Of a stretch of DNA of 54,080 nucleotides, positions 3,122-54,080 are shown in pieces. Origin of the DNA: Clostridia bacterium (GTDB taxonomy: Bacteria > Bacillota > Clostridia > Christensenellales > UBA1242). The stretch's first letter is position 1; each line of letters starts with the position of its first letter. A program made the position numbers and the translations under genes. The notes below the pieces were generated by a model. The model saw nothing but the letters and a program-made list of their open reading frames with translations. It was not told the DNA's origin and made no database searches. Where the stretch lies: positions 1 through 54,080 of the forward strand of contig JAFZSF010000018.1 in NCBI GenBank assembly GCA_017619495.1, in the 5' to 3' direction.

Positions 3122-3962
3122 ATGACGCTCCCCCACACGGCAAAATCAAATTTTCTTTTGTCGGTAATCCAATCTCGTAAGTTTGGATATCGTAGTGTAA
3201 CCCATGCAAATTTTTTCGTAAAACATTTTCTATGACTGCTGGTTGCACCGCAGATGTATAATTATTAACCAACATGAATAGCGGTTTTTCCGATAATAAC
3301 TGCACGCAATTGGCAATTAAATCATTCAAATTATCGGTCAATTTCCAAATTTCACCATTAGCACCACGACCAAAATTAGGCGGATCCATAATAATGGCAT
3401 CGTATTTGTGTCCACGACGAATTTCGCGCGCCACAAATTTTTGACAGTCATCAACAATGTAGCGCACACTTTCATAAGGAATTTGGTTCAAAGCAATATT
3501 GCGTTTAGCTACATCAGTCATACCACGGCTGGCATCAACATGGGTCACGGTAGCACCAGCCTTAGCACAGGCTACAGTCGCACCACCAGTATAAGCAAAT
3601 AAATTTAAGACCTTAGCGTGCGGGTGTTTACCTAAAACTTCCATGACCATATCCCAGTTTACCGCTTGTTCTGGAAACAATCCGGTGTGTTTGAAATTCA
3701 TAGGACTAATAATAAAAGATAGATTTTTATATTTAATGGTCCACTCATCAGGAGTTGGTTTCAACCATTCCCATGCACCACCACCTGTCGCCGAACGATG
3801 GTAATGACCGGAAATATGTGGATAATGTTGATAATCAACAGAAGCGCTCCATATCGCCTGTGGGTCTGGGCGTAACAAGACGATTTTACCCCAGCGCTCT
3901 AATTTTTCGCCATCACCAGTGGCAATGATTTCAAAATCACGCCAATCTGATGTGTATTTCAT
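3105..3962 (-). CDS. Class I SAM-dependent methyltransferase (RlmI/RlmK-like)
   Basis: KHTGLFPEQ, LNLFAYTGG, IIMDPPNFG motifs. Confidence 0.88.
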   Translation of the reverse strand: MKYTSDWRDFEIIATGDGEKLERWGKIVLLRPDPQAIWSASVDYQHYPHISGHYHRSATGGGAWEWLKPTPDEWTIKYKNLSFIISPMNFKHTGLFPEQAVNWDMVMEVLGKHPHAKVLNLFAYTGGATVACAKAGATVTHVDASRGMTDVAKRNIALNQIPYESVRYIVDDCQKFVAREIRRGHKYDAIIMDPPNFGRGANGEIWKLTDNLNDLIANCVQLLSEKPLFMLVNNYTSAVQPAVIENVLRKNLHGLHYDIQTYEIGLPTKENLILPCGGASYVSFL

Positions 3963-20388: not shown

Positions 20389-23300
20389 TTACAAATCCCA
20401 GCCGTAAATATTAGGTACATTGATAATCGAATTTTTATTCGGAAGTCCTGTGATCACACCGGGTTTAACGATATTTTTAACCCCTAAATCCTTTGGCGCA
20501 AATTCAAATAATTTATTGCCTTGTGCTTCATTTGCTGATTCTGTCACGGAAGAATTTTTAACCACATCGTTAGACTCGACAACCGAATCCACCTTTCCTA
20601 CTTCACTATCTTGCATCGAGGCACCTAATTTTTCAAGCTGTACCGTGGCGCGTTGACGATCAACAAAGGAACTATTTTCATCGGCCAAAATTTCGTGTGC
20701 AGATTTTGTTAATTTTAAGGCTTCAATTTCTTCTGCACTGTATCCGGTCGAATGGGCGAGATTTTGGCTAATAACTTCTGCGGCATGTGCGTGTTCAGTC
20801 AAATTACCTTCAATCATTTGATTATTTGTCAGATCGATGTCAACATTGGCAACCCTACCATAAGCTGTAATACGGCCGACATGCATTTGATGAGTGACCG
20901 GATTAATTTCATAATAGGTACCATCTTTATCAGTAAAGCAGTAACTACCATCGACACTGGTGCCACTATAATTACATTTATTCACCAGATCTTGGTAAAC
21001 GGTGGCAGCGTAACTGCCGTCATTATTCCATGTGGGAATTTCAGTACTACCACTAAGCGCAGTTACATCGTCGACTGCGGAACTATTGTCAGTATCTACA
21101 GGCGAAGTATCCGATGATTTGAAACGATTATTATCAACGCGTGATGTATCAACGGGTTCAGCTGGCTCCATGGACTCGTTCTCTATAGACTCGTTAGTGA
21201 TAATTGCTTCTTTAACACCATTTTCAAAACGGTCACCACTAACACTACTCAACTTTACGGTTTCATTTTCATTGGTTGTAATATTGTCACCTAATTCGAC
21301 CTCATCGTCTAACACTGTCACCGCGTGCGCACCAATTCGTCCATTATCAACCCTTGATGTTGCAACTGGTTCGGACTGTCTAGGTTGTTCTTCAACAGCA
21401 GGGGCATCGGTCGGAACATCATTATCAATTACTGGTTCAGCCGTATGTCCATTTAAACGATCATTCCCAACATCTGAAACCGCAACTGGGTCAATCTTCG
21501 GTTCAGTTTTAACGGTTTCGGTAATTTGGTCATCAAAACGATCATTACCAACATGCGACATCGAAACAGGGTTTTGATGAACCACGCTCTGTTCATTACC
21601 CCCAAGAGTAATATTAAGCCCACCTTCCTTGTTGATAATTTCGTCGGATTTAATCAAATTATCAACATCATGGTTATTTGCAAAACCATTTTCCAGATGA
21701 TTCATGGTTTCACTAAAGCCATTATTCTCAATTTCACCAGAACGCTCAAATTGAACCGTGCTATAAAGTTTACGCAAAAGGCCATAAGGATCTTTAACAC
21801 CAAGTTTTTCCATGGTTTCAATCATGGCTTTTTCCTGTTGCTCGTTATACAGAAGTTCCCTCTTACCATTGAAAAATTGTTTATTATTAGCTGAATACGC
21901 AGTCAAGCGCGCATTATCAGTTAATTCAACTTTGCCGAGGTTATCAAGGCGATTTAAGTTTTCTTCAGTTAAATGTTGATCATGCAAGTATTTTTGATAC
22001 GCTTCTAATTGTTCACGCTTATACTGTTCATAACCAGTTTCTTGTGGAAGATCCTCATTAGCATCAGCCTGCATTGGTGATAGTTTAGTTACATCGTGAC
22101 CGAGGTTTTCAAGTGATTCAGTCGTTTTATGTCCAAAGCTACCAACCAGTTTACCAAGTTTGGTTGCAGAAAGGTCTTCTTTCATTTGAGCAGTATCAAC
22201 ATGCATGTTTATGCCATCTTGATGATTAAATGAAATATTACGACCAACAGCTGAGCCGAAGTCACTACCGATTTGGCCACCAAGATAAACTGCAGCGCCT
22301 TTGGCAGCACCATAGGCAACAGCCTTGGCAACATCAGCACCTTTTACATTATGTACAATGTTTTTAACGCGATCGACGAAATGCTCCAAGTGAGCGCGAA
22401 TGCCCTTGGGTTGCTCTGCGGTTTGTGTTTCGGCTTGTGCAACGGCGTCGCGTTGTAAATTGACACGGCGTTCTAAATCATGGAAAGTAGCCTTAACCAT
22501 CATTAAGCCAGCACCAACCGCACGCCACTTAGGACCGAGTGCCATTGCCATAGCATATGGCACTGCCTTCCCCATCATGGCAATACCAGCTTTCAAAGCA
22601 ATTTTAGCTGCATCACTCTTTTTTAATTTTTCGCCATGCTCTTGGGCTTCAAGTTTAGCCTTACGCAAATTGGACAGACCTGCGACAACACCAGCACCAA
22701 CTATGGTGGTTATACCTAAAACTGGACCGACGATTGAACCGACCCCCGGAATGGCAGTAATCGTCGAAATTGCTGTCGCGCCACCCAAGGTAATACCAAA
22801 GGTTTTTACGACATCGAAGACGGGATTAAATTTAACTTGTGGACGGTTACCGCGGTTAGGTTCGGAAACCAAATCATCACTAACTTCATTTTGTGCATCA
22901 TTCACTGCTTGTGTAGCATTCGCTTCGGATTGTGTTGTCACAATATTTTCGGTTGGTTCATGATTCGCTTGGGTAGATGTAGTAGATACTGCTTGGGTTG
23001 TACCTAATTGCGCTGCGTGTTCTTCAAATTGTTGGGCGCGTTCTTCCACTGGAAATTTCAAAACAACCTGTTGGTACTTTTCTTTTGTCCAACCTTGGCG
23101 TTTAGCGAAAGCAAATAAAATTTTATTAATGGTTAGCCCTGCGCCTTCCAGCATAGCGTTACGCGCCTGTGAGTTTTCAGCACCCATGGTAATGGCGTCC
23201 AAGTTATTGGTAAAGAAAGCTGCACGATCTTCATCACACAAAACGCCATAAATTTTTTTAATTTTATCTGTATAACTAAGATTGCGGTCATGTACAATCG

Positions 23301-23880
23301 CGACCAATTTGTCAAAAGCATTTTCGTCGGCGTGACTAACAAAATCATCGTCAAATTCATTTTGCTTGGTCATCAGTTGTTGGTCGATGCGATTAACAAT
23401 TGTACCGTGTTCAAGTAAATTACCATGTCCAAGAGCCGTAGCGGTACGCTTAATACTATTAAGATTCATAACCACATCAAAACTAGGATGTGAATTGATA
23501 TATGCTAGCATGGATTCATTAACCAGCCAGTTTTCAAATTGTGTTTTTAGAAGATTATCCTCTGATGTACGACCAAAGCGTTTATAAGCGTCACTTTCTA
23601 ATAAATCAGCAACAATATCAAAAGTAATCAAAGACGGGTCACTATTAAAATAATTCAACATGGCACGAACAAAGTTTTCATCGGAAAGATTTTGTTCATC
23701 GGACAACATAACAGTGTGTGTTATATTTAACAAGGTTACCGGATCTTCGGGCACCTCTTTATCAGGTACAAAGTACCGATACAAAAATTTACCAGCATTA
23801 ATCGAACGCAACATATTCGCCGGAGTGTTAGTAAAATACTTCTTCGCAAATTTTTGAATTAGTGTTTCTCGTTCCGCCAT
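20389..23880 (-). CDS. Large hypothetical protein with Gly/Ala-rich hydrophobic segments and acidic repeats
   Basis: 1163-aa ORF with its own promoter and terminator; no signal peptide; no family recognised. Confidence 0.85.
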   Translation of the reverse strand: MAERETLIQKFAKKYFTNTPANMLRSINAGKFLYRYFVPDKEVPEDPVTLLNITHTVMLSDEQNLSDENFVRAMLNYFNSDPSLITFDIVADLLESDAYKRFGRTSEDNLLKTQFENWLVNESMLAYINSHPSFDVVMNLNSIKRTATALGHGNLLEHGTIVNRIDQQLMTKQNEFDDDFVSHADENAFDKLVAIVHDRNLSYTDKIKKIYGVLCDEDRAAFFTNNLDAITMGAENSQARNAMLEGAGLTINKILFAFAKRQGWTKEKYQQVVLKFPVEERAQQFEEHAAQLGTTQAVSTTSTQANHEPTENIVTTQSEANATQAVNDAQNEVSDDLVSEPNRGNRPQVKFNPVFDVVKTFGITLGGATAISTITAIPGVGSIVGPVLGITTIVGAGVVAGLSNLRKAKLEAQEHGEKLKKSDAAKIALKAGIAMMGKAVPYAMAMALGPKWRAVGAGLMMVKATFHDLERRVNLQRDAVAQAETQTAEQPKGIRAHLEHFVDRVKNIVHNVKGADVAKAVAYGAAKGAAVYLGGQIGSDFGSAVGRNISFNHQDGINMHVDTAQMKEDLSATKLGKLVGSFGHKTTESLENLGHDVTKLSPMQADANEDLPQETGYEQYKREQLEAYQKYLHDQHLTEENLNRLDNLGKVELTDNARLTAYSANNKQFFNGKRELLYNEQQEKAMIETMEKLGVKDPYGLLRKLYSTVQFERSGEIENNGFSETMNHLENGFANNHDVDNLIKSDEIINKEGGLNITLGGNEQSVVHQNPVSMSHVGNDRFDDQITETVKTEPKIDPVAVSDVGNDRLNGHTAEPVIDNDVPTDAPAVEEQPRQSEPVATSRVDNGRIGAHAVTVLDDEVELGDNITTNENETVKLSSVSGDRFENGVKEAIITNESIENESMEPAEPVDTSRVDNNRFKSSDTSPVDTDNSSAVDDVTALSGSTEIPTWNNDGSYAATVYQDLVNKCNYSGTSVDGSYCFTDKDGTYYEINPVTHQMHVGRITAYGRVANVDIDLTNNQMIEGNLTEHAHAAEVISQNLAHSTGYSAEEIEALKLTKSAHEILADENSSFVDRQRATVQLEKLGASMQDSEVGKVDSVVESNDVVKNSSVTESANEAQGNKLFEFAPKDLGVKNIVKPGVITGLPNKNSIINVPNIYGWDL
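21122..21573 (-). repeat. Five degenerate peptide repeats PVxxSxVxN(D/G/N)R(F/L/I)
   Basis: NPVSMSHVGNDRF, DPVAVSDVGNDRL, EPVATSRVDNGRI, TVKLSSVSGDRF, EPVDTSRVDNNRF. Confidence 0.75.
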
Positions 23881-42219: not shown

Positions 42220-42624
42220 TTATCTTTTCGAAAATTGCGGAGCGCGACGAGCTTTTTTCAAACCGTATTTTTTGCGTTCTTTCATACGCGGATCACGGGT
42301 TAAGAAACCAGCCTTCTTCAATTCTGCTTTGAAATTTGCATCTTCTTTTACCAAAGCGCGTGCAATACCATGGCGGATCGCACCAGCTTGACCTGATAAA
42401 CCACCACCATTAACATTAACGATTGCGTCAAAGGTGTTAACATCTAACAAAGCAAAAGGTTGGTTAACGGTTAAACGCATAAAGCCATCACCGAAATAGT
42501 CTTCCAAAGACTTATCGTTGATAACAACTTTACCGGTTCCTTTAATTAAACGCACACGGGCAACACTGGATTTACGACGACCAGTACCCAAAGTTTGTGC
42601 TACTGCATTTTTCTTAACTGCCAT
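42220..42624 (-). CDS. rpsI: 30S ribosomal protein S9
   Basis: [31 protein letters not shown]. Confidence 0.99.
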
Positions 42625-42626
42625 GA

Positions 42627-43079
42627 TTAGTTTGCCTTCCCTTTAATATCAATTTTACGCGGTTTTTGTGCTTCATGCGGGTGTTCCGCCTGGTTATAAA
42701 CCTTTAATTTTTTGAACATTTCGCGACCCAAAGAATTCTTTGGTAACATCCCCTTAATGGCATGTTCGATGACCCATGCTGGGTTCTTTTGCATTGCATC
42801 TTTAGCTTGCGTGTATTTATCACCACCGACATAACCACTGTAACGGAAATAGTATTTATCGGTCATTTTCTTACCGGTAAAGATGGCCTTTTCCGCATTA
42901 ACAACGATTACATAATCACCAGCATCACTGTGTGGTGTATAGGTTGGTTTATGTTTACCGCGTAAAATCAATGCAACACGGCTGCAAAGGCGACCAACAG
43001 GAAGACCGGTAGCGTCTACCAGCAACCATTCGCGCTTAGTATTTTGTTTGTCCGCAAAAAAAGTTTTTTGTGTTATCAT
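42627..43079 (-). CDS. rplM: 50S ribosomal protein L13
   Basis: [35 protein letters not shown]. Confidence 0.99.
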
Positions 43080-43087
43080 ATTTGATA

Positions 43088-43116
43088 AGTATAGTCACTC
43101 GCGCGCATTTTGTCAA
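43088..43116 (-). promoter_or_regulatory. Sigma-A promoter of rplM-rpsI; leaderless or near-leaderless
   Basis: TTGACA-17-TATACT, 8 nt to ATG; no SD. Confidence 0.8.
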
Positions 43117-43249
43117 ATACTATTTCTTTACTGCCACCTACCCCTTGGCTCTCTCTTCTTTGAACCTTTTTATCTTTACTCCCTTCTTCCTCCTGCACAT
43201 CACTTTGTAGATCGCTAACGTTACTCCTAGCGTTATTACTCCGGCTGCT
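43113..43249 (+). repeat. 137-bp exact direct repeat, copy 1
   Basis: Identical to 53944-54080; covers the last 36 codons, the stop and 25 bp downstream of the giant gene. Confidence 0.97.
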
Positions 43250-46200
43250 ATGATTATAAACATTACAAAGTATTCGTCCATACCTTCTCTTCCTTCTTCT
43301 TCTGTTTCTTCTTTCCCCGGCTTCTCTACAACCGCCGCGGCACCTAAATTGTGTTCATAGTAGCTACTATCTTCGTTCTCTTTGGTCTTTATTTGTTCGT
43401 TTCCATACTTTTTTATCCATTCATCATATCCTTCGTAGTACGCTTTTATCTTTTCTAAACTCATCCCTGACAACGACATACAGGCCGAAGCTCCACTCGC
43501 AAAATCTCCTGAATCGTTTATCACTTCATCTTTTTCATTCGTAAATACATAGCGCACTGTCTTCGCATTATAAACTAACATCTCGTTATCTACACTGGCC
43601 GTATATGTTACATCTCGCGTAGCATGCATCGTGTCTACATTGTAAATAGCACCATCTTCATCTTTCCAACCTAATATATGATAACCACCAAACAATAAAC
43701 CTGACCAGAATTTGTTACCGTCCTCATCTGTAATAATTTGCGGTAATGGAATGATTTCGCCTTCCGCTACAAAGATTCCGGTATCTCGCGAATCGTTTTC
43801 TTCTACTTTGAACCACTTTCCCGTACTTGACAACTGGTAGGTTGTATTACCTGCGGTTATTATCCATTCAATTTTATATTTTTCATCTTCGGCATTAAAG
43901 AAATTAGCATAGAAAATTTGTGAAACATTTCCTTCATAGTGCGAGCCCTTGGGATATATTTTGCCATCGCCTGCTCGTGTAATCGTCCAACCATTCGGAT
44001 TTAACAATGAACCATCTTCGGATTTCTTTTTGTATATGTTTTCGTCAAGCTTATAAGGAATTCCGTGCCATTTCCAACCTTGTTGCGGCGCTACACCCTC
44101 ACTCAGTGGTTCGGCTCCATTCTTATCATACTGAATCGCATACACTTGGTACAGATAGAATTTAATTTCCGGAACTGACAAACCAATATATTCGTTATTC
44201 TTTCCCAAATAATATTGTTCATCTTCTGCCATATCAACAGAATTTGTTTTACGGTTAATTTCTTTTTTATAATAATCATTCCATGTGCGGAAATAATTCT
44301 CATTGTTTATCGTTTTTATGCGAACTACCGCACGGCCATCTTTACCAACTGAATTTACATTTTCAAAGACATGGAACAATGAATTCATCGTATTCACTTC
44401 GTGTTGGTATTTGAATGGTGAATCTTCGTATGCCATTTCGCCAGTAAAGTCAATCCATGCACGCACATATGCCACATCACTATAAGTACCTAACGGCATT
44501 TCAATCAATACCGCACGATCTTCAGCAATTGTAATCTGACTAAATGCTCTCGTCTGGTTATATTCTTCAAAGTTCTTATTTTCTTCGTCGCGCAAAACCG
44601 AAACCATGAATTGATAGGTCCCTAAATTAAATTCCGTATCAGGAGTCCATTGGCGGTCAAAATCTTCGTGTTTGTTATATTCATCATAGACACGATAGTA
44701 GTACCTAACATTTCCGTCATTAAGTAGTTCGTTTTGAAAGTTACATTCAAAATCAAGATATAAATTTTTGGCCTGTTCACGAGTAAAGGTTCCACCAGAT
44801 ACAATTTCATCATTTGCCGTAATTTCGCCATTGGTTTTCTTTTTAATCACCGCACGAACAGAATCAACGGGGAAAGACATGGCTTGAATTCTTGCAGTCA
44901 AAGTACCATATGGTAAATTTCCGTACTCTGCACGATCATCAAAGGTTTTAAGCTCATAACCTGACGGCAAATATCCCGCCAATGTAAAGATCGATTTTTT
45001 ATACACCAATCGACAATCAATTACATATTCACCTTGGTTCATGGCAGTTATATTACCTTGTTGCCACCTGGTCGAAAGTCCCCTTTCTTGGGTAATCTGC
45101 GCATCAGGATTGAAACGATACTCAAAATATGGCAAATCCAAGTTGCTAAATTGCGCCCCATATACATTTTGTGTATTAAGTGTATTATCTATTAATTCGT
45201 AGATACTATCTGCGTGATTTACTAACAATGCCGGCAATACCTCCAGTGTTCCATTTTCTAACGCGGCAAAGTATGCGCTACTTAACTTGAAAGTAATTTC
45301 GTCAATGTAGTTGTTACCAAGTAAGTAATTTTGAATTTCGGTTGCCATTTGATCAGTAATAACTACACTATTATCTTCAATGCTTTTACCAATAAAGTAT
45401 TCTTTAATTGCAAACTTCCTGGTTTCAACTGACAATGACGAATAAGTAATTAAATTTTGGCTTACCGCTGTGTACATAATCGAACTAGATTCAGGTGCAG
45501 TACGAATATTCAAAATATATCGCTCAACTAAAACTTGCACCAAGGTACCTTTTAGCGGATCATTTTCGTCGGCTGCATCACCAACAAATACATTATTACT
45601 GTCAAGTTCAACATAGTAATAAATATCCCAAAGACCAATTGAGTCTACTTCTGGAACTGCTTGATTCCATAAGCGATGTTCTGCATCTACACCGGGTGCT
45701 ACCTTCGAATAATATATTGTCACGCCCAAAGCATCAGCATTTACATTCAGACGACCTTCTTCTAACGCTCTTTGTGGCTTACCACTGTATTTCAAACCAG
45801 AAATAGCTTCCGGCTTAGTTTCCCATCTAATGGGACGAGGATTAATTTGTGCATTCAAATATTCGACCGCTGAATTACAGTAATTACCACTTGCATCCAA
45901 AGCAATAACTTGGTAATTAATTTTATAGTCATTCGCAGCATTTATGCGTCCCGGCAGTTCAGCATCATTTAACCAAGTATAACCTCCCTTAACTGCATCG
46001 TAATAATAACGATAATGTTGTGTTTCACCTTCGTACCAGAATTCAATCGCACAATGGTGCAAAGCTAATGAAGTTAAACTGCCATAAGCAATTAAGTTTT
46101 GCACGCTTCCCTTTCTTTCTTTGGCTACGGAGTCGTAATAATCTGTATACACGACTGAATCTAAGGCATACGGAACTTCATTTAAACCAAGCGCAGCATT

Positions 46201-49200
46201 ACATTGCGCAATTGACACTATCACCGAGCCAACTGATTGGTTCCAATTCTCACCGGCAAAAACACCATAATTAACCGTATAATTACCAGCATTAACACCA
46301 GTCAATGCTTGAATATCAGCAGAATCAGATGTTTTTAAGACGGTGTTTACACTGTATTTGATTTGCAAATCGTCATCAACATCGTAATATTGCCCCGCAC
46401 CGTAGTAAATACCAGTAGCAAGGAACTTAGCACTCGCCACACCTTTTAATAAATTTTGCGATTCTCCGTTATAAATTAATCCATCACTGTCATCGCCATA
46501 ATAACTGGGAGCGGTTAGGATAATTTGAGCCGGAGCAATATTTACAACCGCAAAACATTTAAGGTATTCATTCAAGTTTTCGTTATCACCATTGGTTTTA
46601 ACCCATACCCATAAATAATAATTACCAGCATTCGTACCCTTCAATTCGTTAATATCTTCATACCAAGTTATCGGTTTTCCAGCAAGGGTTGCACTATCAC
46701 CCAAACCCCATTTAACATCTATGTTATTGTTGTAAGCGGTAGTGTTAACATCATTACCATTTATCACAATCGGTAATTTAGCTTCACTGTTCAAGGTCAC
46801 CGTCGCCAAAATTTGCTGTTGATCTTGACCAATATAGCGTAAACCTTCGGTACGCGGAGTAATACTATTATTAAAATAGCTATATTCCAAATCAGCCGCA
46901 GCAATTTCTGTGAAATCCCTTTCTGGATCAATACAGTAGCATTTATAATAATCGGCAATATTACGCGCTCCTGTCGCTGGATTAACAATACTGGTCACTT
47001 TAACCCAAATGTAATATTGACCTGCGTTGCTTGCTTTCAGATCATTAATATTTTCCAACCATGCAGATACGCTAGCAACCGGTGCAACTAATGGATCGTT
47101 AGAGTAAGCGTATTCAATCTTTGAGTAGTCGTTAATATTCGACAGTAAAATTCCACTGGTTTTAAATCTTTGTGTCACACCTGTACTAATTAATTGTTTT
47201 TCGCTACCATCATATGACAACCTAGGAACAAATGTAATACCACTTAAAACAATATCATTTTCAGCAGCTTGACCAATCGTTACTGAACCAATATAACGCG
47301 GTTCAATCTCTGTATGACTGTAACCAGCACCGAACTTAATCCAAATATAATAGGTACCTGTATTGGCCTGTTTTAATTTGCCATTTACTGTAATGTCAGT
47401 ATACCAACCATCTTCACCAGCGCCAGTATTATCAAAAGTACCGGTCTTGGTTAGTGTTTCCGGACTGCCACTAATATAATAACTAGCTTGACCAAATTTC
47501 GGTTGAGTATTGTTCGCAGGTACAATAAACGAATTATTACCGTTCTTCATTTCCAAACTAGCTGCACCGGCAATTAAGCACTGTTCGGTTCCATCATAAG
47601 CCAAATTTCTGTTCAAACTTGGCACATTAATTTTCATCGATAATTCATTTGTGGGAATAATTTGCGCATAAGTATTATTAGAAAACAATTCAAAAATTAA
47701 GTCGTCAACAGCGATGTCGTTTACACCGTCCTTGATGGCAATTTTAAAGTACAATTGATATTGCCCAATTCCCACAGCACCAGTATCAGCCCAAACAGTA
47801 TATTGACTAGCCGTTGGTTGCGCACTGCCATGTTCAGTAACATTCCACAATACATAAGTATTGGCAGCATTGTTAATTTCGTCACTTAAATTGTAGTTCG
47901 ACCCCGTGATACGAACCGACAAGTTACCGCCAACTAATTTCTGATCTTTAACCATAATATTGGCACCGGTAAACATTTCCGTCATGCCGTAAAGTCCGGA
48001 AACGGACAAATCTGACTTAATCGCTTTACCAATACTAATCGCCTGACGAACTGGAGCATCACCGTCCACTGCCAATGTTGACAAGCATTCAACTACCGTC
48101 GAAATATTACTTTCCGTGTTTGTGTCACTTACATAAAGCATGACCCACAATTTATAGTTACCATAATGGACACGCGACAGGTTTTGCCACATCGAACGCC
48201 AACCCGTTGCCGTACGGTCAGTAATCGCCGGCGCAGTTTCACTCACATCGGTAATTGCATAGAAAATTTCACCAATGTTTTCACCACTTGGAATTGTTCG
48301 ATAAACATTATCAGTTCCTGATATTTTAGCATTACCATTCTCGTCGCGATCCAAAATTTGAATTGACAATTGCAAATCACTAATCAAATTACGCGCCAAA
48401 CCATTAAAGCGTAAATCGTCACCGTTAGCTTCTTTTTGAACCGTATAACTCGATTGGTTCAAACGAATATCACTAGCACTAGCACGCGTAATTGTAATCG
48501 GACTACTCGAAAAGCAAACAGGATTATGTGCAATATGGTTATCACCTGCATCAACTTTCATCCAAATATAATATGTACCAACACGACTTACTTTAAGATC
48601 TTGATAGTTAGATTTCCAAGATTCCACGGTTAAACTGTTGACATCCGTACTATTAGAAACTGCATAGGAAATTGCACCAAAATTACCGTGCCTTTGCACA
48701 CCGTTTATAAGATAAGTTCCATTTTTATAAAAACTATACGCAATATTAGCACCACTAACAGTCAAGCGTGTACCATTATGCTGCAAGAAATAATTCCCCG
48801 ATTGTAAAAGAATTTGATAGTCGCCACCTTTATATGTTAACACACCACCATTGGCTATAACCGGCGCTGAAATTTCAACTTCCACCTTATTAATCGTCAC
48901 CGCAATGGACATGATTTCGTTAGCATCGTCAACACTACTATTTGCACCGGGCTTAGCCTTAAAGAACAGGGTTTTAACACCAGCATCTTTAATTGACAAT
49001 TCGTTTGCTCCGTAATCATACCACCCCGAAGCTGAACCCGACCAACTGTATACTAATGGAATTTCCGTACTACTACTCTGCAATTTTGCTTTACCATCAG
49101 TAAATAACTGCGTGCAAGGTATATTACTACCAGTGTAATAAACACCCGACTTCGCCTGTGGCATCGCCGCAGGATCAAACATAGCCGACGCTTTGTTAAT

Positions 49201-52200
49201 GGATACGGTTACATAACTGTAATTATAGCGGTTGATATCGGTCAACGCCTTGGTTGTATCTTCCTTTACTTGCGTAGTAAAGATTGTTTTACCACCACTG
49301 GTATAACTAGCACCACGGTAATAAACCTTAAACGAACCGGCCTGTGCCCATTTTAAGCTTTCCGCAGTAACATCTTGTGTCCAAACCCATTGGCCACTTG
49401 CATTGGCCGTTAATTGTCCTAATGAATATTCCACTTTTGGTGCTAATTGCGCACTGGCTGTAATCAATTGATGTTTATCATTATCAGCCGTAAACACAAT
49501 ACCATCAATCGGCGTCGGTGCCACCTGGACAAACGAGGTTGTAGATGTTATGCTGGCTGCGGTCGGGTGCATATAAACATAACTGGCATTTACATAGTCA
49601 TCGTTAATGGTAATACGAACAAACATATAATAACTACCTAAATCAGACTGTTGTGCGGCACCAATTTCACTCTTCCATTGGCTGGCAAAATTCGACGATG
49701 TCGCCACCGATTTGTCGTTACTTGTAATTAATAAATACTCTGAACTTACCCCAGTCGAACTATATGCACTACCGTTAATCGTGAAACTTACCGCCGATTT
49801 AACTTGGAACAACGGTTGTCCTTGCGGCACATAGGTGTTATCCTCAAATAAATACCTAAATTGATGCGAACCACCGTTGGTTTCCTCTAAGAAAGTATTG
49901 GTTACTGCGAAGTTACTGTCGGTTAAAGATGTCAAACTAACAATATTCATCTTCGGCGTCGCGTATACCGCACGACTGCTGTCGTAAATACGATAAGCCA
50001 TCGCACCTGCTTTTACATTGTCACTACCCGACCAACGAATCCACACATAATGGCTGCCGTTTTTGGCAACCACATTCCTATAATTGGTTCCCGTCAACCC
50101 ATAGTAATTACCCGTCATCGCATCTAATGCTTCACTGACACCAATTTCAAAAGTGCCAAAGTCAGTCGCCAAATCACCAGTAGTCTTGGAACCTGACTTA
50201 TAATACGCCTTAATCGTCGGCGCAGAATCACCCGCAATCATGCGTTGATTGCCATTGTTAAATGGTAAGTTGTAATTATCAAATGCGATGTCATCTTCCA
50301 CACTACGCTCTGGCGTACCACCATTAAAGGTCACCCCAGCAAAATATATATTGCAATTGGCAGTATCTAACGAAAATTGTTGAATCTCAAACTTGGCATA
50401 CATGCGACCATCAGACGCCGCCACATTGGTACTGGCCGTCCATTTTACCCATAAATATTTGGTACATATATTCGTAAATGTCGGCAATGAACTTGTACTC
50501 GTTTGCCAACCTGTCGTCGGTGCAACTGTCGCGCTATCGCCAACCGCATACGAAACCGTTCCCAAAGTTAAGGCTGTATGACTCGATGCTAATGTACCCG
50601 CCGCAATGACACTATGCGCTGCTCCATCATAAGGAATCAAACCGTTAGCACCATAAGTACTGGCCCCCGTCATCGTCACACCCGTCAACGGAATCGTGGC
50701 AGCATTGTACCCATTGGCGGTAATTTGTGCTGCTTTGATAATCATATTTGTCGCAAAGTTATAGTGCGTTTTGACCTTTAACCACAAGGTCCAAGTTCCA
50801 CTGGCGGTCGGTTTTAAGGCCTTGATACCATTAATTAATGCAGTGGTAGATGCCGTTTCTACCCACGAAGTGGCACTGGCCGCCGGTTGAGTGTTTTCCG
50901 CTACGAAAGCATAATAACAATTATTGTATGTGGTTCCAGTTTCCGAAGAGAGACCATTCCAACCAGCATCGGAATTACCGCTGTACTGTAAATCAATCTT
51001 TGATGTACTGGCAAACGGCGCCGTCCAAACACCGTTAGTACCAACATTAACTGACGACGCAACCGACAAACTGGTCACCGATACCTTACTACTAACCGAT
51101 GTTTTATTAATCGTAAAAGTAAAACTCTTGGAACCACCGGCAATATTATCGGTATAACTTGATGTCGGTGTCCATTTAACCGTCAACTCATATGTCCCTG
51201 CATTTTTGGGTTTGACTTTTAGTGTGTCCCAAGTCTGATTATTATATGATGTACTCCAGCCACTGGATGTTTGCGTCATGCTGTATGTAGTAGTCACCAT
51301 GGATGTGGTTAAACCAGTAGCCGACAAAGTGGGCGCCGTGGTTGTGGTCAAGGGACAATGCGTCGCGCCGTCATATGTTACTGCAGTTGCCGCCGTGCCT
51401 GAACAAGTAAATTCACCTTTGGCAATGTAACCATACACCCCTGAATAAGTCCAATCGACTGCATTGTGGTTGGTACCCGCCGCCACACGATAATACAAAT
51501 AATAACGGTATTGGGTTGTGCCCGTGTAGGCGTCTTTACCCTTCATGTTAGACAAAGTTGAATTTTCCCCAGAACCAGTTGATGCGGTAGGTGCAGATGT
51601 CGCGGTACTCTTAATGACACGATAATAAATGGTTCCGTCACCTGACCTGGTCGGTGTCCCTGTAAACAAAGATTGGTCACCGTTATTATATTTTAATCCC
51701 GTCACAGCCGCCAAAGTATTTTTTGAAATTGAACCATTAACCTTGGTAATGGTCACAGTAACATAACCCTGATCACTGTCAATATAGTTAGTAGTATTGG
51801 TCGATGCTGCATAATAATAAACGGTATAAGTTCCCGCATTGGTCGCCGTGACGCTATTAATATCGGTAACCCAACTACCCGAATCAACTTTATACTTAAT
51901 CGTGTATGAACCACTGGGGTTACCATCATTGGTCGCCGCAGCGCTCAGCAGTTTGATGGCATTACCCGTGTATGGTGTACTGGTCGCCGTGACCGTCGGT
52001 GCTTTGGGTTTTTTCAGTTTAGCCTGTGTCAGAATTTGAACCGATTTACTGCCTTGCCCACTGTCATTATAACCTGCGTCACCCTTTGCATACCATTTGA
52101 CCAAATAATAACCCGGTGCCTTGGCCTTGATGGCAGCCTTATCAGTGGTCCAATTGACTTCCACAGCCCCCTGTGTCCAATAGGCGTCACTTTTATACAG

Positions 52201-53739
52201 AATATATTGCATGGTACCATGGGTGGCGGTACCAGCATCGTAAATAAACGCGACATCTTGGTTCGTACCGCTGGAATCTACCTCGCGGTAAAAATAGCGG
52301 TCAGAACCATAATAAGAACTCATAAAAGTTGGGTCGGTCGATACCGCGGCGGTACCATTGGTATTAATTGTCAAGTTAAGACCGGTCACCTCTTTTATAA
52401 TATATTCGCTATCGCCAGCCGCAGCCTCAGGCGAAGTGTATTTCATATGATAGGTAGAACCGAGCGTATCCGTCCCGCTTGCGGCATACATTACATAGCG
52501 CGCACGCACACCAATGGTTCCGATATTTGTCAATTGCGGGACATCTTGACCCCAAATTCCATTACCGTACAGTCCCTTCGACATTGTCGAACCAAACCAC
52601 GTATTACCGTTATTGTTAGTATATTGGTACACCCAAGCAGTTTTGATACCACTAACATATTCCACACTCTCCGGAACATACGCACCAGTATTTCCCGTGT
52701 TTTTTAAAGTTAGAGCCGTTCCATCATATGTTTTACTGGCACCCTCTGGCAATGTCGTTGGGTCGATGCGATAAAAGCTAACTCCACCATTTCCATTATA
52801 TGGATTTCTCGTATAGCCCGTTATATCACTGGTACACAGCGGATAGCAGTTCGGCGAACATGAACCGCCACCACCCTGGGCTGGGCCGCTATTCCTTAGA
52901 CTACCCCCACCATCAACATACGCAAAAGCACTGCCACCACCACCGTCGTTGTACCCCGCACCACCACCTGAGCCGGACACCATCGTAGATCCACCATACA
53001 CACCAACATAATAATAGCTCCCATTCGGGCTCTTTGTTTTACTCGTACTGGAATAAGAATTGGGCCCCTGAAAACCGCCCGATGATTGCGAAGCCGGGGT
53101 TCCCGGCATCCAATAGTAAGAACCACTACCATTTGACATGGATTTGCTAATCGCCCAACCTGAAAACTTTGCAGCCATTGCTTGACCATAGTTGCTATAA
53201 TTGGCGCCAGCCCATGTAGCATCAGCAATTAACTTATAATTAGTATAGCCAATGCCACTACCCGCTTCTGAGGTACCGCCGCCGCCACCACCACCGGCCA
53301 CGGCAGAGGTATCGGTCTGTCCATTGGGGCGTCCGAAGTTCGTTGAGATTGTGGTTTTTCCGCCACCTCTAGAACCATAGCTGGAACTATAAGGATTGCC
53401 CCCACCCTGACCTATTCTCACGGTCATACTGTTGCCTTTGTAAAACGCCAGACATACTGCCCCATAACCTTGCTTACTTCCATTACCATCCTGACCCCAG
53501 AATCTTACTGCATAGACTCCATTGTCAAAATTTAATGTGTAACTTTTATCACAGTTCTTTGAAGGGCCAGTAAGATCAAATGTTGTTTGCCCCGTAAAAT
53601 TTTTCGTTTCTGCCGCTGCCTCAATTGCGGGGTTATCGGAATTAGATAGTCCGCGGAACTTAAAGACCGCCGAAAACAGCGCACACGCGGCAACCAGTAC
53701 CGACATGATTATAATGGACGCTTTGGCTCTTTTGTTCAC
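43138..53739 (-). CDS. Giant membrane-anchored surface protein (3533 aa), putative adhesin
   Basis: N-terminal signal/anchor, Gly-rich domain, about 20 degenerate beta-rich modules (Y[DNT]G..Q.L ... NAG.Y..W), InlB B-repeat-like unit, C-terminal TM helix and basic tail; no LPxTG. Confidence 0.9.
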   Translation of the reverse strand: MNKRAKASIIIMSVLVAACALFSAVFKFRGLSNSDNPAIEAAAETKNFTGQTTFDLTGPSKNCDKSYTLNFDNGVYAVRFWGQDGNGSKQGYGAVCLAFYKGNSMTVRIGQGGGNPYSSSYGSRGGGKTTISTNFGRPNGQTDTSAVAGGGGGGGTSEAGSGIGYTNYKLIADATWAGANYSNYGQAMAAKFSGWAISKSMSNGSGSYYWMPGTPASQSSGGFQGPNSYSSTSKTKSPNGSYYYVGVYGGSTMVSGSGGGAGYNDGGGGSAFAYVDGGGSLRNSGPAQGGGGSCSPNCYPLCTSDITGYTRNPYNGNGGVSFYRIDPTTLPEGASKTYDGTALTLKNTGNTGAYVPESVEYVSGIKTAWVYQYTNNNGNTWFGSTMSKGLYGNGIWGQDVPQLTNIGTIGVRARYVMYAASGTDTLGSTYHMKYTSPEAAAGDSEYIIKEVTGLNLTINTNGTAAVSTDPTFMSSYYGSDRYFYREVDSSGTNQDVAFIYDAGTATHGTMQYILYKSDAYWTQGAVEVNWTTDKAAIKAKAPGYYLVKWYAKGDAGYNDSGQGSKSVQILTQAKLKKPKAPTVTATSTPYTGNAIKLLSAAATNDGNPSGSYTIKYKVDSGSWVTDINSVTATNAGTYTVYYYAASTNTTNYIDSDQGYVTVTITKVNGSISKNTLAAVTGLKYNNGDQSLFTGTPTRSGDGTIYYRVIKSTATSAPTASTGSGENSTLSNMKGKDAYTGTTQYRYYLYYRVAAGTNHNAVDWTYSGVYGYIAKGEFTCSGTAATAVTYDGATHCPLTTTTAPTLSATGLTTSMVTTTYSMTQTSSGWSTSYNNQTWDTLKVKPKNAGTYELTVKWTPTSSYTDNIAGGSKSFTFTINKTSVSSKVSVTSLSVASSVNVGTNGVWTAPFASTSKIDLQYSGNSDAGWNGLSSETGTTYNNCYYAFVAENTQPAASATSWVETASTTALINGIKALKPTASGTWTLWLKVKTHYNFATNMIIKAAQITANGYNAATIPLTGVTMTGASTYGANGLIPYDGAAHSVIAAGTLASSHTALTLGTVSYAVGDSATVAPTTGWQTSTSSLPTFTNICTKYLWVKWTASTNVAASDGRMYAKFEIQQFSLDTANCNIYFAGVTFNGGTPERSVEDDIAFDNYNLPFNNGNQRMIAGDSAPTIKAYYKSGSKTTGDLATDFGTFEIGVSEALDAMTGNYYGLTGTNYRNVVAKNGSHYVWIRWSGSDNVKAGAMAYRIYDSSRAVYATPKMNIVSLTSLTDSNFAVTNTFLEETNGGSHQFRYLFEDNTYVPQGQPLFQVKSAVSFTINGSAYSSTGVSSEYLLITSNDKSVATSSNFASQWKSEIGAAQQSDLGSYYMFVRITINDDYVNASYVYMHPTAASITSTTSFVQVAPTPIDGIVFTADNDKHQLITASAQLAPKVEYSLGQLTANASGQWVWTQDVTAESLKWAQAGSFKVYYRGASYTSGGKTIFTTQVKEDTTKALTDINRYNYSYVTVSINKASAMFDPAAMPQAKSGVYYTGSNIPCTQLFTDGKAKLQSSSTEIPLVYSWSGSASGWYDYGANELSIKDAGVKTLFFKAKPGANSSVDDANEIMSIAVTINKVEVEISAPVIANGGVLTYKGGDYQILLQSGNYFLQHNGTRLTVSGANIAYSFYKNGTYLINGVQRHGNFGAISYAVSNSTDVNSLTVESWKSNYQDLKVSRVGTYYIWMKVDAGDNHIAHNPVCFSSSPITITRASASDIRLNQSSYTVQKEANGDDLRFNGLARNLISDLQLSIQILDRDENGNAKISGTDNVYRTIPSGENIGEIFYAITDVSETAPAITDRTATGWRSMWQNLSRVHYGNYKLWVMLYVSDTNTESNISTVVECLSTLAVDGDAPVRQAISIGKAIKSDLSVSGLYGMTEMFTGANIMVKDQKLVGGNLSVRITGSNYNLSDEINNAANTYVLWNVTEHGSAQPTASQYTVWADTGAVGIGQYQLYFKIAIKDGVNDIAVDDLIFELFSNNTYAQIIPTNELSMKINVPSLNRNLAYDGTEQCLIAGAASLEMKNGNNSFIVPANNTQPKFGQASYYISGSPETLTKTGTFDNTGAGEDGWYTDITVNGKLKQANTGTYYIWIKFGAGYSHTEIEPRYIGSVTIGQAAENDIVLSGITFVPRLSYDGSEKQLISTGVTQRFKTSGILLSNINDYSKIEYAYSNDPLVAPVASVSAWLENINDLKASNAGQYYIWVKVTSIVNPATGARNIADYYKCYCIDPERDFTEIAAADLEYSYFNNSITPRTEGLRYIGQDQQQILATVTLNSEAKLPIVINGNDVNTTAYNNNIDVKWGLGDSATLAGKPITWYEDINELKGTNAGNYYLWVWVKTNGDNENLNEYLKCFAVVNIAPAQIILTAPSYYGDDSDGLIYNGESQNLLKGVASAKFLATGIYYGAGQYYDVDDDLQIKYSVNTVLKTSDSADIQALTGVNAGNYTVNYGVFAGENWNQSVGSVIVSIAQCNAALGLNEVPYALDSVVYTDYYDSVAKERKGSVQNLIAYGSLTSLALHHCAIEFWYEGETQHYRYYYDAVKGGYTWLNDAELPGRINAANDYKINYQVIALDASGNYCNSAVEYLNAQINPRPIRWETKPEAISGLKYSGKPQRALEEGRLNVNADALGVTIYYSKVAPGVDAEHRLWNQAVPEVDSIGLWDIYYYVELDSNNVFVGDAADENDPLKGTLVQVLVERYILNIRTAPESSSIMYTAVSQNLITYSSLSVETRKFAIKEYFIGKSIEDNSVVITDQMATEIQNYLLGNNYIDEITFKLSSAYFAALENGTLEVLPALLVNHADSIYELIDNTLNTQNVYGAQFSNLDLPYFEYRFNPDAQITQERGLSTRWQQGNITAMNQGEYVIDCRLVYKKSIFTLAGYLPSGYELKTFDDRAEYGNLPYGTLTARIQAMSFPVDSVRAVIKKKTNGEITANDEIVSGGTFTREQAKNLYLDFECNFQNELLNDGNVRYYYRVYDEYNKHEDFDRQWTPDTEFNLGTYQFMVSVLRDEENKNFEEYNQTRAFSQITIAEDRAVLIEMPLGTYSDVAYVRAWIDFTGEMAYEDSPFKYQHEVNTMNSLFHVFENVNSVGKDGRAVVRIKTINNENYFRTWNDYYKKEINRKTNSVDMAEDEQYYLGKNNEYIGLSVPEIKFYLYQVYAIQYDKNGAEPLSEGVAPQQGWKWHGIPYKLDENIYKKKSEDGSLLNPNGWTITRAGDGKIYPKGSHYEGNVSQIFYANFFNAEDEKYKIEWIITAGNTTYQLSSTGKWFKVEENDSRDTGIFVAEGEIIPLPQIITDEDGNKFWSGLLFGGYHILGWKDEDGAIYNVDTMHATRDVTYTASVDNEMLVYNAKTVRYVFTNEKDEVINDSGDFASGASACMSLSGMSLEKIKAYYEGYDEWIKKYGNEQIKTKENEDSSYYEHNLGAAAVVEKPGKEETEEEGREGMDEYFVMFIIIAAGVITLGVTLAIYKVMCRRKKGVKIKRFKEERAKG

Positions 53740-53943
53740 GGTCTAATTCAATCCCCCAATTAACACTATTATTTAACACAAAATTCAATTTATGTAAAAC
53801 AAAAAAGACTATTATTTCTTCATGATCCATTTCACTACTGTTACGCATTACTGACAACTAGAATTTAGATTAGCTGTAGTGTGACGACTTGATTGCCAGC
53901 TTATGCGGGTACTTGAAAATCCAAATTAAAGTTGCAGTTAAAA

Positions 53944-54080
53944 TCAAATACTATTTCTTTACTGCCACCTACCCCTTGGCTCTCTCTTCTTTGAACCTTT
54001 TTATCTTTACTCCCTTCTTCCTCCTGCACATCACTTTGTAGATCGCTAACGTTACTCCTAGCGTTATTACTCCGGCTGCT
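53944..54080 (+). repeat. 137-bp exact direct repeat, copy 2 (cut by window end)
   Basis: Identical to 43113-43249; identity continues to the last base of the window. Confidence 0.97.
53969..54080 (-). CDS. 3' end of a second gene with the same TM anchor and tail (partial)
   Basis: Reads ...AAGVITLGVTLAIYKVMCRRKKGVKIKRFKEERAKG-stop, identical to the C-terminus of the 3533-aa protein. Confidence 0.75.
   Translation of the reverse strand, partial: AAGVITLGVTLAIYKVMCRRKKGVKIKRFKEERAKG

Follow-up and report, generated by a model that had tools for sequence, protein, structure and literature searches.

Contig JAFZSF010000018.1 of the Clostridia bacterium assembly GCA_017619495.1 (Christensenellales, UBA1242) is 54,080 nucleotides (nt) long and carries near its right-hand end a giant open reading frame (ORF) for a putative surface protein of 3,533 amino acids (aa), located upstream of the ribosomal protein gene rplM. 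The last codons of this giant gene are present a second time at the very end of the contig, as part of an exact 137-nt repeat. We refer to the whole 54,080-nt stretch as the window; it is the entire contig C26 of a genome bin (G000) of 836,835 bp in 37 contigs, which is rated 90% complete.

An original prediction, made from the window alone, interpreted the repeat as a constant anchor cassette joined to possibly different ectodomains in tandem giant adhesin genes, forming a surface-variation system. Here, we examine the repeat in metagenome assemblies and compare the locus with those of related genomes. The whole giant-gene transcription unit is probably duplicated in tandem, and the contig would break off 137 nt into the second, near-identical copy.

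An exact repeat at the contig end

Direct comparison confirmed that the two copies of the repeat (Table 1), offset by 10,831 nt, are identical at 137 of 137 positions, and a chance origin of an exact match of this length within 54 kb is not possible. Read on the minus strand, the repeat corresponds to codons 3498-3533 of the giant ORF (36 codons plus 1 nt) and encodes the C-terminal two thirds of a transmembrane (TM) helix and a basic tail, followed by the TAG stop and 25 non-coding nt, in agreement with its original description as most of the TM helix, the tail, the stop and 25 non-coding bp. The same segment is found by tblastn, in which residues 3498-3533 of the giant protein match 54079-53972. 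The sharp left edge that had been described also stands: the bases preceding the two copies are unlike (..TTTG and ..AAAA) and the common backward extension is 0. The right limit, however, is merely the end of the contig, because the window is the whole contig, and 137 nt is thus not a natural repeat length.

The repeat appears to be confined to this contig. Its 21-mers occur in none of the 36 other contigs of the bin, and tblastn of the giant protein against the genome gave two high-scoring segment pairs, both in C26, with no paralogue elsewhere in the bin. The 31-mers of 43000-54080 are also absent from the other 36 contigs, as is a 30-letter loose end belonging to a sequence, C′, that is described below. 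A count of the 137-bp element across the bin, as originally suggested, gives no copies beyond the two in C26.

Connections of the repeat in metagenome assemblies

Contigs built with k-mers of length 31 (k=31) from four ruminant-gut metagenome runs, using a different assembler from that of the window, were placed on 42500-54080. Window DNA is listed for 22 runs, 20 of which hold some of the stretch and four at least half of it (11 studies). Run X1 is the probable source of the window, X2 and X3 belong to the same study as X1, and X4 is a bovine run from a separate study.

Seven records of X1 were aligned, of which four are informative. Record 1 (5,394 nt, depth 6.98) contains the rplM flank and ends 30 nt inside the repeat. 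Record 3 (10,687 nt, depth 16) spans 43113-53799 unbroken, with no fork at 43249/43250, and corresponds to a unit containing the promoter, the gene, its stop and the 25 nt that follow. Record 6 (204 nt, depth 14.2) starts at 53770, crosses a 144-nt spacer (L) to 53943, and stops after the first 30 nt of the repeat, and record 7 (2,297 nt, depth 7.95) is common to the window only at 53770-53799, after which it continues as C′. The depth of the unit is 2.3 times that of the rplM flank and 2.0 times that of the C′ flank, these depths being k-mer means of contigs rather than raw-read depths. The X1 records form a cyclic graph (unit, L, unit again), entered only from C′ and left only into the rplM flank. 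No third flank is present in the X1 graph, though contigs with only 30 nt in common would have been placed, which argues against a mixture of two strains with unlike flanks. The C′ loose end at 53799 is present in all four runs.

The contigs of X4 diverge from the window by approximately 1-5%. One of them, record 24, links three segments: 53822-53879, a ten-letter match to the end of L (with one change), and 43113-44030. The spacer (carrying a 54-nt deletion), the repeat and 781 nt from the body of the same gene are therefore contained in a single contig. Together, the unbranched graph of X1 and the bridging contig of X4 indicate that the gene beyond the end of the window is another copy of the same gene. 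An end-to-start junction, an approximately twofold depth and an identical continuation past the 137 nt, as looked for in a tandem duplication, were all found.

These junctions (X1 record 6 and X4 record 24) bear out the original claim of a second giant gene immediately upstream, in tandem, and the identity at silent and non-coding sites supports its inference of recent duplication or homogenisation. The proposal of a constant anchor cassette on possibly different ectodomains is not supported, because all copies in X1 enter the same body without a fork. The outcome that had been set against that proposal, a full-length identical upstream duplicate, is essentially the one seen: the upstream gene is near-identical, with 10,687 nt unbranched in X1 at doubled depth.

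It could still be argued that the upstream gene is a different giant paralogue with only the anchor cassette in common, so that recombination within the cassette would swap ectodomains. The bin lacks the contig upstream of the array, and a relative (G013, see below) has tandem giant genes in which different bodies share a near-identical short end, but this is the 5′ end. Against such swapping are the lack of branching in X1 where the repeat enters the gene body, the passage of one X4 contig through L and the repeat into 781 nt of the same body, the unit depth of twice the flanks in X1, the lack of a second paralogue or further repeat copy in the bin, and the lack of a recombinase gene on C26. 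With PF00589 and PF00239, two tyrosine and two serine recombinase matches were found on C10, C21 and C32 and none on C26, consistent with the earlier remark that no recombinase is visible in the window, although the upstream contig is missing. We regard an ectodomain-swapping array as very improbable.

That the terminal 137 nt, or the whole junction between L and the repeat, is chimeric or mis-joined is less probable still, and hardly credible. The repeat copy does lie exactly at a contig end, and other contigs of the bin also have terminal overlaps. However, a different assembler, working at k=31, independently recovered the junction in X1, and it is bridged by a single contig in X4, from a separate study; the second copy is thus very unlikely to be an assembly artefact, in line with the original reading on this point.

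The terminal overlaps elsewhere in the bin concern the contig-end pairs C2/C31 and C22/C28, each of which overlap by exactly 141 nt. These probably represent adjacent nodes of a k=141 graph, and thus additional repeats or strain forks that the assembly left unresolved.

Limits of the putative duplicated unit

The coordinates of the features at the locus are listed in Table 1. The unit is bounded by putative promoters on both sides. Its upstream limit is the position at which L and C′ part company, at 53799/53800, one base upstream of the putative giant-gene promoter. This promoter was recognized by eye; the same TTTACA-N17-TAAATA arrangement recurs upstream of both copies in G013 and of the gene in G004, and it is not among the sites listed by a consensus promoter scan. 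At the other side, the outer end of the repeat at 43113 splits the -35 hexamer of the promoter-like site of rplM, so that a whole rplM promoter follows only the rplM-proximal copy. The last ~16 nt of the repeat fall within a stretch conserved upstream of rplM in the relatives G010, G013 and G003. With its limits at both promoters, the duplicated segment would be one complete transcription unit and, because it runs from its own -35 to 25 nt past the stop, each copy is expected to be transcribed separately.

Table 1. Features at the giant-gene locus (window coordinates)
Feature	Position	Strand	Description
rplM	42627..43079	-	Ribosomal protein L13; directly downstream of the array
rplM promoter-like site	43088..43116	-	TTGACA-17-TATACT, 11/12 consensus
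Repeat copy 1	43113..43249	-	Giant-gene 3′ end; TAG stop at 43138-43140; 25 nt of 3′ non-coding sequence
Giant ORF	43138..53739	-	3,533 aa; GTG start
Putative duplicated unit	43113..53799	-	10,687 nt: promoter, gene, stop and 25 nt; single unbranched k=31 contig
Variant sites (two)	53707..53722	-	Window versus k=31 contigs of X1-X3
Putative giant-gene promoter	53770..53798	-	TTTACA-N17-TAAATA, read by eye
Spacer L	53800..53943	-	144 nt, 34% GC; lies between the upstream copy's end and the downstream copy's promoter
Repeat copy 2	53944..54080	-	3′ end of the putative upstream tandem copy, cut by the contig end

Comparison of L with the genome and with the upstream regions of the relatives gave only short matches at chance level, and no second copy of L is present in the bin. 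A patch common to L and C′ (GCGTAA..TAGTGA) was noted by eye but is too short to count as homology, and was rejected.

Two sites near the start of the giant gene differ between the window and the k=31 contigs of X1-X3. At 53707 and 53722 (minus strand) the window has G and T, and the k=31 contigs have A and A; the first lies in codon 11 and is synonymous, and the second changes codon 6 from K to N (K6N). These variants may be differences between the two copies of the unit.

Giant genes in related genomes

With the last 1,000 aa of the giant protein as query, matches were found in 16 of 41 genomes: G000 itself, 14 of the 18 other genomes of the genus, and one of six from other genera of the family; none of the 16 genomes from other families of the order has a homologue by this search. 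The gene is found mainly in a single genus of Eubacteriales with small genomes. A large protein database yielded four matches among 2,137 scored candidates, namely the giant protein and three proteins of 4,897-4,946 aa. A scan of genome contigs with the giant protein gave a single locus, in the relative G010, and a scan of metagenome contigs with the whole protein gave 22 pattern matches, none of which was confirmed. The C-terminal TM helix and basic tail are kept at the protein level in all 11 of the aligned homologues.

The position of the giant gene is conserved, as it lies upstream of rplM and an MreB-like gene in G004, G010, G013 and G016. In G013 there are two tandem giant genes at the syntenic locus (L011 and L012 on contig C3), encoding proteins of 4,897 and 4,946 aa and separated by a gap of 53 nt, which supports the interpretation of the window as a tandem duplication. 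The bodies of these two genes have diverged (30-62% identical nucleotides per 300-nt window of alignment), but the pair match perfectly over the 50 nt upstream and the initial 25 nt of coding sequence, and identity across the first 110 nt is 88%; this 5′ stretch is a short cassette, either homogenised or strongly constrained, on different bodies. The G013 pair indicates that the giant gene has been duplicated at this locus either repeatedly or long ago within the genus and that local homogenisation occurs, the near-identical 5′ ends showing that partial homogenisation exists in this gene family. The upstream part of this 5′ stretch, with the promoter, is found at L011:19370-19422 and L012:15264-15320.

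Genes for RNase Y and a MiaB-like protein lie upstream of the giant gene in G013, and the MiaB-like gene also precedes it in G004. RNase Y has no match in the G000 bin, and the search for the MiaB-like gene returned just a radical-SAM paralogue with 30% identity, on C10. The DNA upstream of the array is probably absent from the bin and located on unbinned contigs.

Several other observations were made on giant genes in the genus. In G003, the giant-gene contigs C52 (L019) and C38 (L020) were considered as candidate paralogues and rejected, as both run into rplM-rpsI; this bin, which is 63% complete, contains two versions of one locus, which could reflect either mixed strains or a duplicated locus. 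Contig C24 of G012 begins 21 nt past the giant-gene stop, a break point unlike that of the window. A contig of X3 follows the rplM flank to 43128 and then enters the 3′ end of a different giant gene, ending ..FKEEARH* and resembling that of G010, showing that these samples are also home to another species of the genus. Within 50935-52669, in the N-terminal third of the giant gene, X4 has patches that are replaced or diverged relative to the window, with 95-99% likeness elsewhere: 51149-51272 is replaced by 149 other letters, 51540-51623 is of equal length and diverged, and there is a gap at 52510-52669. Elsewhere in the window, a 1,163-aa ORF at 20389-23880 (minus strand), adjoining rpoB/rpoC, matches no Pfam family at E <= 0.01.

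Properties of the giant protein

The giant protein begins with a hydrophobic segment, a putative signal or anchor, at approximately residues 4-29, followed by a putative glycine-rich domain and a long ectodomain that is predicted to be beta-rich, and closes with the C-terminal TM helix (~3488-3515) and a basic tail ending ..RFKEERAKG; hydrophobic segments are restricted to the two ends of the protein. A search for the motif LPxT[GAS] found no LPXTG sortase anchor, and self-BLASTP revealed no internal repeats. No Pfam family was identified, even at E <= 10 with the protein divided into six pieces, nor any NCBIfam family, the only match being a sub-threshold one to OmpL47.

Structure models were made for both ends. 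The last 520 aa (predicted local distance difference test score, pLDDT, 68) are modelled as mostly beta, with weak fold matches to Gram-positive pilus adhesins and pilins (SpaC, PitA, SpaA) and to the InlB B-repeat (13 matches at E <= 0.001, with template modelling scores, here TM-scores, of 0.1-0.2). Confidence is low for the model of the first 340 aa (pLDDT 52); its best PDB matches are all ALK/LTK TNF-like/glycine-rich ectodomains, which make up 14 among the matches listed to rank 18 (probability 0.94-1.0, TM-score 0.26-0.32). The nearest Atlas clusters of the giant protein carry PF12810 with a score of 0.79, which we take as a lead only: the PF12810 hidden Markov model (HMM) gave no match, the N-terminal 350 aa matched no family at E <= 10, and none of five aligned homologues matched either. 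Nothing meaningful came from searching PDB sequences with a profile of the N-terminal alignment. From these sequence features and models we read the giant protein as a putative membrane-anchored, adhesin-like fibre.

Discussion

The arrangement that we favour, and consider likely, is that in the direction of the gene the chromosome would run from C′ (unbinned upstream DNA) through a first unit, the 144-nt L and a second unit to rplM. Short-read assembly would have collapsed the copies, with the junction (L plus 137 nt) remaining as a dead end. There would be two copies of the unit, and perhaps a third. A recA gene is present on C30 and, given such long perfect homology, unequal crossing-over and gene conversion between the copies are expected, which would maintain their likeness and alter their number.

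Several observations weigh against this arrangement. The junction contig has a depth of 14.2, compared with ~8 expected for two copies, and three copies do not fit either, given the unit depth of 16. The assembler of the window appears to have used k=141, as inferred from the two 141-nt contig-end overlaps, and at this k the overlap at the junction should be 140-141 nt and not the 137 nt that is seen. L and C′ are unlike from the first base past the promoter, which a fresh and simple tandem duplication would not give. Contigs lose rare variants, such that a low-abundance alternative continuation past the repeat could be hidden, and the full-length identity of the copies rests on the unbranched graph and the depth, as no contig or read covers a whole copy. 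X1 may be the source sample, and hence not independent of the window, and X4 is a single run from a separate study.

The anomalous depth of the junction, which matches no whole copy number, raises the alternative that only part of the population is duplicated, or that a 10,831-bp circle (the unit plus L) exists beside a single-copy chromosome. A tandem array and a circle yield identical graphs, and the X1 graph is a cycle; moreover, long perfect repeats in the presence of recA should recombine. However, L is found only at the junction, so a circle must itself derive from a tandem array, and the unit bears just the one gene, with nothing to replicate a circle. The junction is also kept in the 1-5% diverged strain of X4, pointing to a stable chromosomal arrangement. 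On balance, heterogeneity of copy number or a circle seems unlikely.

Returning to the tandem duplication, the presence of the same junction in the diverged X4 strain and the unlike contexts in L and C′ suggest an older duplication homogenised by conversion rather than a fresh event; the evidence for this is one contig in one independent run and 30 letters of C′. A bolder version, which we offer tentatively and think possible rather than likely, is that the duplication is old, the copies evolve in concert by gene conversion, and the array flips between one, two and three copies by unequal crossing-over.

Tandem duplication and amplification in bacteria are reportedly covered in reviews by Andersson and Hughes. 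Bacterial tandem duplications persist, and are resolved, through unequal crossing-over and gene conversion that depend on RecA. The locus described here resembles such amplifications in having head-to-tail copies of multiple kilobases, a novel junction, doubled depth, near-identity at silent sites and collapse on assembly. It differs from the typical case in that the 144-nt spacer is unlike the sequence upstream of the first copy, and from unstable laboratory amplifications in that the junction is also present in a 1-5% diverged strain, so that it looks older and conversion may maintain the likeness of the copies. The G013 pair belongs to the same family, occupies the same place upstream of rplM and the MreB-like gene in the same orientation, and likewise has a promoter for each copy. 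In that pair, however, the bodies are 30-62% identical and near-identity is restricted to the promoter and signal-peptide end, whereas here the k=31 contigs do not separate the two copies anywhere along 10.7 kb.

Cassette-based surface variation, as in the Mycoplasma vsa and vlp genes and Neisseria pilE/pilS, involves several variable parts that are joined to, or recombined with, a constant part. These systems have in common with the window tandem surface-protein genes sharing an identical terminal segment, but only one body is seen here and there is no dedicated recombinase nearby. The giant protein itself is reminiscent of Gram-positive fibrillar proteins and pilus adhesins in its putative signal for export at the N terminus, its very long ectodomain, predicted to be beta-rich, and the TM helix and basic tail at its C terminus. 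Ebh of Staphylococcus aureus is a giant membrane-anchored fibrillar surface protein. Unlike the Gram-positive fibrillar adhesins, the giant protein lacks an LPXTG motif, a Pfam or NCBIfam family and detectable internal repeats. The likeness of its N-terminal 340-aa model to the ALK/LTK TNF-like and glycine-rich domain (PF12810), which provides the best PDB matches, is tempered by the silence of the HMM at E <= 10 and by the low model quality and TM-scores. A literature search found no relevant work.

Tandem duplication is a known phenomenon, of which a collapsed, near-identical pair would be one more example rather than a new kind of system, and our result is mainly a correction: the apparent anchor cassette at the contig end is the likely footprint of a collapsed tandem duplicate, such that the bin would under-count the giant gene and miss the DNA upstream of it. 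A bacterium with a genome of ~0.84 Mb would thus devote ~21 kb to two copies of one unannotated giant surface protein, with the duplicated segment corresponding to exactly one transcription unit, from promoter to promoter. Conservation of the junction across diverged strains hints at concerted evolution. If the array does flip in copy number, it would provide a reversible dosage control or on-off switch for a giant adhesin that accounts for ~2.5% of the DNA of a minimal-genome gut bacterium.

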